Below are positions 51,941 through 64,000 of a DNA stretch of 64,000 nt, piece by piece (position 1 is the first letter of the stretch; each line of letters starts with the position of its first letter). The notes below the pieces were generated by a model. It did not search any database. It saw nothing but the letters and a program-made list of their open reading frames with translations, and was not told the origin of the DNA. The DNA is taken from NCBI RefSeq assembly GCF_988242995.1, contig NZ_OZ547043.1. One strand, 5' to 3'. The position numbers and the translations under genes were made by a program.

Positions 51941-51958
51941 TTTTTCTCCCTTATTGGC
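51941..51958 (+). promoter_or_regulatory. BaeR box in the mdtA promoter
   Basis: TTTTTCTCCCTTATTGGC matches the BaeR consensus TTTTTCTCCATDATTGGC at 16 of 18 positions, about 55 bp upstream of the mdtA start; preceded by a second TTCTCCA half-site. Confidence 0.6.
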
Positions 51959-62994: not shown

Positions 62995-63004
62995 CATTTT
63001 TACC

Positions 63005-63038
63005 TGCCGGAGAAGGCATTCACGCCGCATCCGGCAAC
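63005..63038. repeat. REP-like palindrome downstream of baeR
   Basis: gccggagaaggcattcacgccgcatccggcaa. Confidence 0.55.
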
Positions 63039-63173
63039 ATTATCCCGCGCATGGTCAGCAAACTGACATTATCTCTCCGCCCTGGCAACCGCCTGAAAAT
63101 CGCTCATACTTTAATCGGTAAACAGTTCTTTTAGATGCTGTTTTCGATACGCAATTTCAATCAAGGAGTCATT

Positions 63174-63506
63174 ATGGCTGGTTGGTTTGAACTCAGTAAG
63201 AGCAGTGATAATCAGTTCCGGTTTGTGCTAAAAGCGGGCAATGGTGAGACTATCCTCACCAGCGAGCTATATACCTCAAAAGCCTCTGCGGAAAAGGGTA
63301 TCGCGTCGGTGCGTAGCAACAGCCCGCAAGAAGAACGCTATGAGAAAAAAACGGCAAGCAACGGCAAATTCTATTTCAATCTGAAAGCCGCCAATCATCA
63401 AATTATCGGCTCCAGCCAGATGTACGCCACCGCGCAATCTCGTGAAACCGGAATTGCCTCCGTTAAAGCCAATGGCACAAGCCAGACGGTGAAAGACAAT
63501 ACGTAA
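63174..63506 (+). CDS. yegP: Small conserved protein with two tandem DUF1508-type repeats
   Basis: Conserved start MAGWFELSKSSDNQFRFVLKAGNGE at the internal Met with SD aaggag (ORF track begins at 63135), giving 110 aa; two ~50-aa halves share F.L.A.N...I..S..Y.....E.GIASV. Confidence 0.85.
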   Translation: MAGWFELSKSSDNQFRFVLKAGNGETILTSELYTSKASAEKGIASVRSNSPQEERYEKKTASNGKFYFNLKAANHQIIGSSQMYATAQSRETGIASVKANGTSQTVKDNT

Positions 63507-63653
63507 TTACGATGCCGGGCGTGGGTTGTTGGCGTCCGGCGCTTTACCAGCTCCCCCCTACAGCGCTACAATGCCCGCCCTTAAAGTGGGGGCACTCCCC
63601 TGGCCGCTTCATCAGGTGAAGCGGATCTGACCTGTCATCAGAACGAGAGAATT

Positions 63654-64000
63654 ATGTTTAAACCGGAACTCCTTTCCCCGGCGGGAACGCTGAAAAATAT
63701 GCGTTACGCTTTCGCTTATGGCGCAGATGCTGTTTATGCGGGCCAGCCGCGTTACTCCCTGCGTGTGCGCAACAACGAATTTAACCACGAAAATCTTCAG
63801 CTCGGCATCAATGAAGCCCACGCGCTGGGGAAAAAGTTTTATGTCGTGGTCAACATTGCACCGCACAACGCCAAGCTGAAAACCTTTATCCGTGACCTGA
63901 AACCGGTGGTGGAAATGGGGCCGGATGCGCTGATTATGTCTGATCCAGGGCTGATTATGCTGGTGCGCGAGCACTTCCCTGAAATGCCGATCCATCTCTC
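63654..64000 (+). CDS. yegQ: U32-family peptidase/tRNA hydroxylation protein, 5' partial (runs off the window)
   Basis: Open frame from ATG 63654 with SD gagag: MFKPELLSPAGTLKNMRYAFAYGADAVYAGQPRYSLRVRNNEF...; no stop before the window end, so absent from the ORF track. Confidence 0.8.
   Translation, partial: MFKPELLSPAGTLKNMRYAFAYGADAVYAGQPRYSLRVRNNEFNHENLQLGINEAHALGKKFYVVVNIAPHNAKLKTFIRDLKPVVEMGPDALIMSDPGLIMLVREHFPEMPIHL

Follow-up and report, generated by a model that had tools for sequence, protein, structure and literature searches.

YegP of Escherichia coli is built from two copies of one module of about 50 residues. Its gene lies at positions 63174 to 63506 of the 64,000-nucleotide stretch of DNA that was analysed (the window). 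Two DUF1508 modules of about 51 residues, each folded as beta-beta-beta-alpha, are joined head to tail. Taken jointly, this anatomy, the ancient origin of the pair and an own transcription unit for the gene are proposed with high confidence. RefSeq, Pfam, the PDB (entry 2K8E, released in 2008) and recent papers already record that YegP has two modules, where it starts and that it counts as a protein of 'function unknown'. Reading YegP as a duplication is thus correct but not new, because a solved structure, a curated family and published work already state the tandem DUF1508 organization.

The coding sequence is that of the ordinary E. coli gene yegP, and its features around the start are as follows.

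63174..63506, + strand: yegP CDS, 333 nt including the stop, 110 aa; YegP/UPF0339 family protein with two DUF1508 domains
63163..63168, + strand: Shine-Dalgarno sequence AAGGAG, read directly from the sequence, 5 nt before the ATG at 63174
63135..63137, + strand: upstream in-frame ATG, not the start; it opens the program-listed 123-aa ORF, which overextends

RefSeq gives the identical CDS range for yegP, 'YegP family protein' (WP_000929408.1), in a genome that is 100% identical over the query. The right end of the window corresponds to the E. coli mdtABCD-baeSR-yegP-yegQ(trhP) region, with baeR upstream and yegQ downstream of yegP. A 666-nt query around the gene (62995-63660, comprising the baeR-yegP spacer, yegP and the spacer up to yegQ) was matched in 5423 of 5426 complete E. 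coli genomes. Over this segment, identity reached at least 99% in only 6 of the 5425 matching E. coli records, the top match being an O158:H23 strain. Since the majority of records are only 95-99% identical, the window represents a less common E. coli lineage. The encoded protein is the same as K-12 YegP (UniProt P76402; PDB 2K8E; UPF0339 / PF07411 DUF1508), which also has 110 aa and matching genomic neighbours. It is identical to the 2K8E chain at 109 of 110 residues, the sole substitution being at codon 37 (63282-63284), which encodes Ala here and Thr in K-12 and 2K8E and falls in a column that is variable among homologs. T37 of K-12 YegP is a reported phosphosite (PMC8055822). The protein has no signal sequence.

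The initial annotation held that the program-listed frame starts too far upstream and that the true start is the Met at 63174, preceded by a good Shine-Dalgarno sequence. RefSeq, homologs, Enterobacter and a published mass all agree with this assignment: AAGGAG ends 5 nt upstream of that ATG, and inspection of the sequence upstream of the ATG at 63135 found nothing resembling such a site. The stretch TCAAGGAGT at the yegP ribosome-binding site is identical in Enterobacter, where both the Shine-Dalgarno sequence and ATG 63174 are conserved and the position of 63135 reads CTG. All 30 aligned homologs share the start Met (M-A/S/T-G-W/K...) at the position of ATG 63174. Top-down mass spectrometry gave an intact mass of 11,885.99 Da for K-12 YegP (PMC11705214), to be compared with a computed monoisotopic mass of 11,885.93 Da for the des-Met form (Ala2 to Thr110, 109 aa). 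The 123-aa form, for which 13,405-13,537 Da was computed, was rejected on the basis of the measured mass. The real start of yegP is thus ATG 63174 and not 63135.

That the two halves of YegP align directly as a module of about 50 aa present twice was also an early claim, and it is borne out by self-alignment, profile-profile comparison and Pfam. The two copies are located as follows.

63186..63332, + strand: module 1, N-type DUF1508 copy, residues 5-53; ungapped self-alignment; beta-beta-beta-alpha
63339..63485, + strand: module 2, C-type DUF1508 copy, residues 56-104; self-alignment at offset 51; beta-beta-beta-alpha

Residues 5-53 align with residues 56-104 without gaps at an offset of 51, with 19 of 49 positions identical (39%) and 31 of 49 positive. 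The BLOSUM62 local score between the halves is 91, while 2000 composition-preserving shuffles of one half gave a mean of 23.3 (sd 4.7, maximum 46); none reached the observed score, which corresponds to z = 14.5, so that the self-similarity is significant. Comparison of the N-half and C-half profiles with hhalign (profiles built from 30 homologs) returned a probability of 99.65 and E = 5.1e-25 over 50 columns. The domain search that had been proposed for DUF1508 matched PF07411 twice: the family scores 153.1 bits against YegP (gathering cut-off 22; E = 1.7e-45), in two stretches. YegP is rich in S, A, K and N, but a chance or low-complexity effect behind its self-similarity can be dismissed, given that no shuffle exceeded 46 against an observed 91, that the profile-profile E is 5e-25, that two independent Pfam domain matches were obtained and that the structure itself repeats.

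The modules share more than their overall alignment. Among the 30 homologs, 14 column pairs are conserved at 80% or more in both modules, and 13 of these 14 hold the same residue in each; the single fixed difference is L28 in the N module versus G79 in the C module. The motif common to both modules in these homologs is F-x-L-K-A-x-N-x(3)-I-x(2)-S-x(2)-Y-x(8)-G-I-x-S-V-x(2)-N. Conserved positions include K20/K71, N23/N74, Y33/Y84 and N49/N100. The calculated pI is 5.3 for the N module, 9.9 for the C module and 9.43 for whole YegP (median 8.96 across the 30 homologs). These charges and the fixed L28/G79 difference suggest that the two copies later specialised.

The repeat is equally visible in three dimensions. 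A single-sequence AlphaFold model had a pLDDT of 49 and was discarded; we used instead an AF2 model computed from the 30-sequence alignment, with a pLDDT of 92.9. In this model the element order beta-beta-beta-alpha occurs twice, as E4-9, E15-20, E26-29 and H36-49 in module 1 and as E56-60, E66-71, E77-80 and H87-100 in module 2. The model superimposes on 2K8E, the structure of E. coli YegP, with a TM of 0.95, and whole-chain superposition on 2K8E and on 2K49, the Shewanella oneidensis tandem homolog SO_3888, covers 108-109 residues. SO_3888 is a tandem protein like YegP and 65% identical to it, but its gene lies in a different genomic neighbourhood. Both YegP modules share the beta-beta-beta-alpha fold of solved DUF1508 family members. 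Among these, the single-domain UPF0339 proteins of Haloferax (HVO_2922, 6Q2Z), Neisseria (NMB1088, 3BID) and Agrobacterium (Atu0232, 2K7I) consist of the same module, 29-44% identical to one YegP module, and each of their structures matches one module. Against the NCBIfam equivalog NF041908 (HVO_2922), YegP scores 56.5 bits for a cut-off of 90, and is thus related but not a member. Single-domain DUF1508 proteins have been described as homodimers and tandem ones as symmetric pseudo-dimers (bioRxiv 10.1101/2024.11.21.623966). Whereas the single-domain proteins carry one module per chain, the YegP pseudo-dimer mimics their reported homodimers within one chain; YegP, with its 110 or so residues, belongs to the tandem two-module subtype, with pseudo-dimer packing as described in that work.

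The initial annotation called the function of YegP unclear, and the literature concurs: YegP is referred to as 'uncharacterized' (PMC13373217), and no paper in the searchable literature assigns it a function. Profile searches of Pfam, NCBIfam and PADLOC revealed no catalytic family matching YegP, and no defence-protein family of PADLOC-DB 2.0 was matched at E <= 0.01. Elsewhere, DUF1508 is fused to HEPN_RiboL-PSP, HTH_3, the NuiA nuclease inhibitor, OmpA and the proprotein-convertase P domain. The tandem form constitutes the N-terminal putative sensor of Menshen NsnA and has been likened to the sPC4/Whirly binders of single-stranded DNA (PMC12065111). DUF1508 is also fused to Bub ubiquitin-like proteins (bioRxiv 10.1101/2024.11.21.623966), and in 57 loci the CapK/CapS regulators, which ssDNA activates, have a yegP homolog downstream (PMC13373217).

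We tentatively propose a non-catalytic, binding role for the DUF1508 pair, the paired sheets of which would bind a macromolecular ligand, possibly single-stranded nucleic acid or RNA as the likeliest kind. The basic character of YegP and its lack of a catalytic family match are consistent with this proposal, as are the HEPN_RiboL-PSP, HTH_3 and NuiA fusions, the published links to Menshen NsnA, Bub and the CapK/CapS loci, and a segment of a tryptophanyl-tRNA synthetase profile. The intrinsic dimer of DUF1508 has been proposed to be similar in topology to the sPC4/Whirly fold (PMC12065111), and YegP is basic; no structural similarity of YegP to PC4 or Whirly proteins was seen among the matches listed. 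On the other side, the searchable literature contains no experiment that identifies what any DUF1508 protein binds, the N module is acidic, YegP has no PADLOC model match, and the synthetase link consists of sub-threshold partial profile matches. Moreover, the OmpA, proprotein-convertase P, ubiquitin-like and contractile-injection baseplate partners would fit a protein-protein or scaffold role equally well.

As a separate observation, YegP and P0201, a fusion protein described below, match the C-terminal part (about positions 353-405) of the 431-position NCBIfam profile NF008923 (PRK12284 tryptophan--tRNA ligase) with E values of 2.9e-6 and 3.3e-5. These are partial, sub-threshold matches to a profile, and they suggest that some TrpRS enzymes may carry a C-terminal DUF1508 module.

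A role of the pair in protein-protein interaction or scaffolding is possible, though again we would put it no higher than a tentative reading: YegP might bind, protect or regulate a stationary-phase partner, maybe under the control of phosphorylation. Such a role would suit the very long arrays of DUF1508 pairs, which reach 1561 aa, the T37 phosphosite reported in K-12 (PMC8055822), and the overlap of a gene for an HTH-YegP fusion with the end of a HipA-family kinase gene. Against it, no partner is known, and the HEPN, HTH, NuiA and TrpRS associations point to nucleic acid. Phosphorylation at T37 cannot be essential, because residue 37 is Ala in the strain of the window and the column is variable.

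As part of the same tentative proposal, the pair would be used in two ways: in E. coli, YegP would work alone as a stress protein, and in other settings, joined to effectors, the same unit would be the sensor or adaptor domain. The effector-fused tandem DUF1508 proteins (Menshen NsnA, Bub DUF1508-Ubl1 and the HEPN, HTH and NuiA fusions) contain the same two-module unit as YegP. In contrast to them, YegP stands alone, without an effector domain, and in E. coli it has no recognisable defence operon.

The age of the pair can be read from its DNA. Nucleotide identity between the modules is 50% overall and 37% at third codon positions; since the latter are near random, the duplication is ancient. 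A DNA-level repeat search found no trace of it, as expected for modules that are only 50% identical at the nucleotide level. The tandem form is retained in the Shewanella ortholog at 65% identity, and the yegP duplication long predates Enterobacterales. In 1.84 billion representatives, searched exhaustively with phmmer, 3802 hits were obtained at E <= 0.001; many of them are proteins 200-1561 aa long in which two to nine stretches of YegP length match. Every module was labelled N- or C-type with HMMs built from the two halves of YegP. Among the 113 proteins with three or more modules, 438 label transitions are alternating and 140 join modules of the same type, and the linkers of multi-module proteins have a median of 5 aa from N to C and of about 48 aa from C to N. 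Because the labels mostly alternate and the linker lengths differ, the unit that was later multiplied is the differentiated N+C pair and not a single module.

Some of these proteins are giants of 500-1561 aa in which YegP-like N+C pairs, repeated many times over, make up almost the whole chain; each has 4-9 matches of YegP length, linkers of about 48 aa and no signal peptide. One example (P0121, L011:5001-9431) has 13 labelled modules, and another (P0144) ends in an OmpA domain.

YegP is best read as the product of an ancient duplication or fusion, because relatives with a single module exist and reportedly form homodimers. This event would have turned a DUF1508 homodimer into one covalently linked pseudo-dimer, a step that is shown in part and probable for the rest. 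The initial annotation spoke of an internal tandem duplication. The two modules and their common ancestry stand, and the event is ancient; the in-gene route, on the other hand, is not distinguishable from the fusion of paralogous single-domain genes. We consider it unlikely that YegP goes back to two single-domain paralogs that had already diverged before they were fused. That route would accommodate the wide distribution of single-domain DUF1508 proteins, which dimerise, the distinctness of N- and C-type modules across distant taxa and in arrays, and the fact that all solved single-domain relatives align best to the N module. However, the same present-day sequence is expected from either route, and a 5-aa N-to-C linker together with identical module length is what a simple in-frame duplication would leave.

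As for expression, yegP probably forms a transcription unit of its own, with a CTGGCA-17-CATACT promoter, the AAGGAG ribosome-binding site and a hairpin that would separate it from baeR. The elements flanking the gene are the following.

63005..63045, + strand: REP-like hairpin directly after the baeR stop, between baeR and the yegP promoter; weak Rfam naRNA4 match
63082..63110, + strand: yegP promoter, -35 CTGGCA at 63082-63087, 17-nt spacer, -10 CATACT at 63105-63110; read from the sequence
63514..63540, + strand: GC-rich hairpin, putative weak terminator, 8 nt after the yegP stop and followed by GCTTTACC

The promoter was read by eye, a consensus scan with a threshold of 9/12 having missed it at 8/12 matches. 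Genomic SELEX with RpoD holoenzyme lists the same hexamers for the baeR>yegP spacer (PMC3946193). In Enterobacter the -10 CATACT is identical and the -35 is CTGGAA, with one base different. C(-8)/T(-6) in the -10 region are typical of sigma-S promoters. The yegP -10 region, CATACTT, has C(-8)/T(-6) and lacks C(-13), and the same site is bound in vitro by RpoD holoenzyme (PMC3946193). The gene is listed as RpoS-dependent (PMC2907692), and multiple stresses as well as zinc induce it together with dps, osmY, elaB, otsB and yeaG (PMC9501238, PMC10734530). From these published data, yegP would be expressed in the RpoS general stress response and not via BaeR. We concluded that yegP stands as a separate unit, with expression through both RpoS and RpoD.

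Upstream, the naRNA4 (REP-derived) match at 63005-63045 has E 0.018, below the gathering score, and was the only Rfam match from the scan; the hairpin folds with -20.3 kcal/mol (z -2.3). Compared with Enterobacter, where a canonical GC-stem/T-run terminator stands at this position, the hairpin amounts to an insertion of 44 nt. Downstream, a terminator scan found nothing convincing after yegP and did not call the hairpin at 63514-63540; the fold of 63500-63560, which includes it, totals -20 kcal/mol, with z 0.0 relative to shuffles. In the spacer leading to yegQ/trhP, the consensus scan also picked up a promoter-like site at 63543-63572 (TTTACC-18-TACAAT, 9/12 matches), and a 9-bp hairpin occurs at 63604-63624, just before the yegQ start region.

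The possible relevance of the bae neighbourhood to yegP, raised by the initial annotation, is not supported by this analysis. That yegP is a functional part of the adjoining BaeSR envelope-stress module, co-transcribed with it or induced by BaeR, appears very improbable. The gene does lie on the same strand, 179 nt downstream of baeR, and the order mdtCD-baeSR-yegP-yegQ is kept in Enterobacter. Zinc is an inducer of BaeSR. Prolonged exposure to zinc raises both the protein and the mRNA of yegP, but the zinc-induced set (dps, osmY, elaB, otsB) is the RpoS set (PMC10734530), and the RpoS dependence of yegP is published (PMC2907692). Furthermore, baeR is followed by the REP-like hairpin in E. coli or the canonical terminator in Enterobacter, yegP has its own conserved promoter, and the Shewanella ortholog sits among integrase, AAA, DUF2787 and SieB genes. 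We also scanned the window with TTTTTCTCCATDATTGGC, which we take to be the BaeR box. Within 3 mismatches, this presumed pattern occurs only once in the 64 kb, as the one-mismatch match TTTTTCTCCCTTATTGGC at 51941-51958, upstream of mdtA and about 50-70 nt before the expected mdtA start; there is none near yegP. The searchable literature contains no yegP-BaeR link beyond gene-order listings and no report of induction by BaeR. The position of yegP beside baeSR looks incidental, a lineage-specific accident of gene order.

The neighbourhoods of yegP-like genes in other genomes are diverse. In Shewanella, the ortholog with the SO_3888 sequence (L010:1-8333) is surrounded by genes for a phage integrase, a large AAA ATPase, DUF2787 and SieB, with neither baeSR nor yegQ; these surroundings look like a mobile or defence-type island. 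YegP-like ORFs are found in only 9 of 50,697 phage records, so yegP is not typical of phages. For four diverged representatives (P0155, P0169, P0205 and P0241), the contigs are at most 2 kb long and offer no useful neighbours. In E. coli, the gene after yegP is yegQ/trhP, which serves tRNA U34 hydroxylation (63174-64000 of the window), and a gene for a DUF1508x2-HEPN fusion (P0253, L003:6001-7968) is directly followed by one for a Dus tRNA-dihydrouridine synthase; the occurrence of two tRNA-modification neighbours could be due to chance.

A further arrangement involves P0201, a fusion of an HTH_3 (HipB-like) domain with tandem DUF1508. The start of its gene is overlapped by 4 nt by a gene for a HipA_C-family kinase (YjjJ-like, E 5.6e-11), at L012:3655-5687 and L013:1483-3515. 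Kinase and fusion make up a toxin-antitoxin-like pair, with the YegP module attached to the HTH partner. We found no description of this pair in the literature. It was also considered as a case of CapK/CapS, which was rejected, as CapK is anti-sigma-factor-kinase-like and CapS is STAS-like, and neither corresponds to HipA/HTH.

Stress, toxin-antitoxin-like and anti-phage systems repeatedly contain DUF1508 pairs as accessory domains. A broader reading, which we regard as doubtful, is that the YegP-type pair generally serves to sense or bind single-stranded nucleic acid or tRNA, standing alone in the RpoS stress response and plugged into kinase-controlled and defence systems (CapK/CapS-yegP, the HipA-family kinase with HTH-YegP, HEPN, Menshen and Bub). 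If this were true, E. coli YegP would provide an experimentally tractable entry to the ligand of the module. The worthwhile question left by YegP is indeed what the DUF1508 pair binds, and the E. coli protein is a convenient model for it: because it is abundant, soluble, RpoS-induced and structurally solved, it is the easiest place to learn the ligand of DUF1508.
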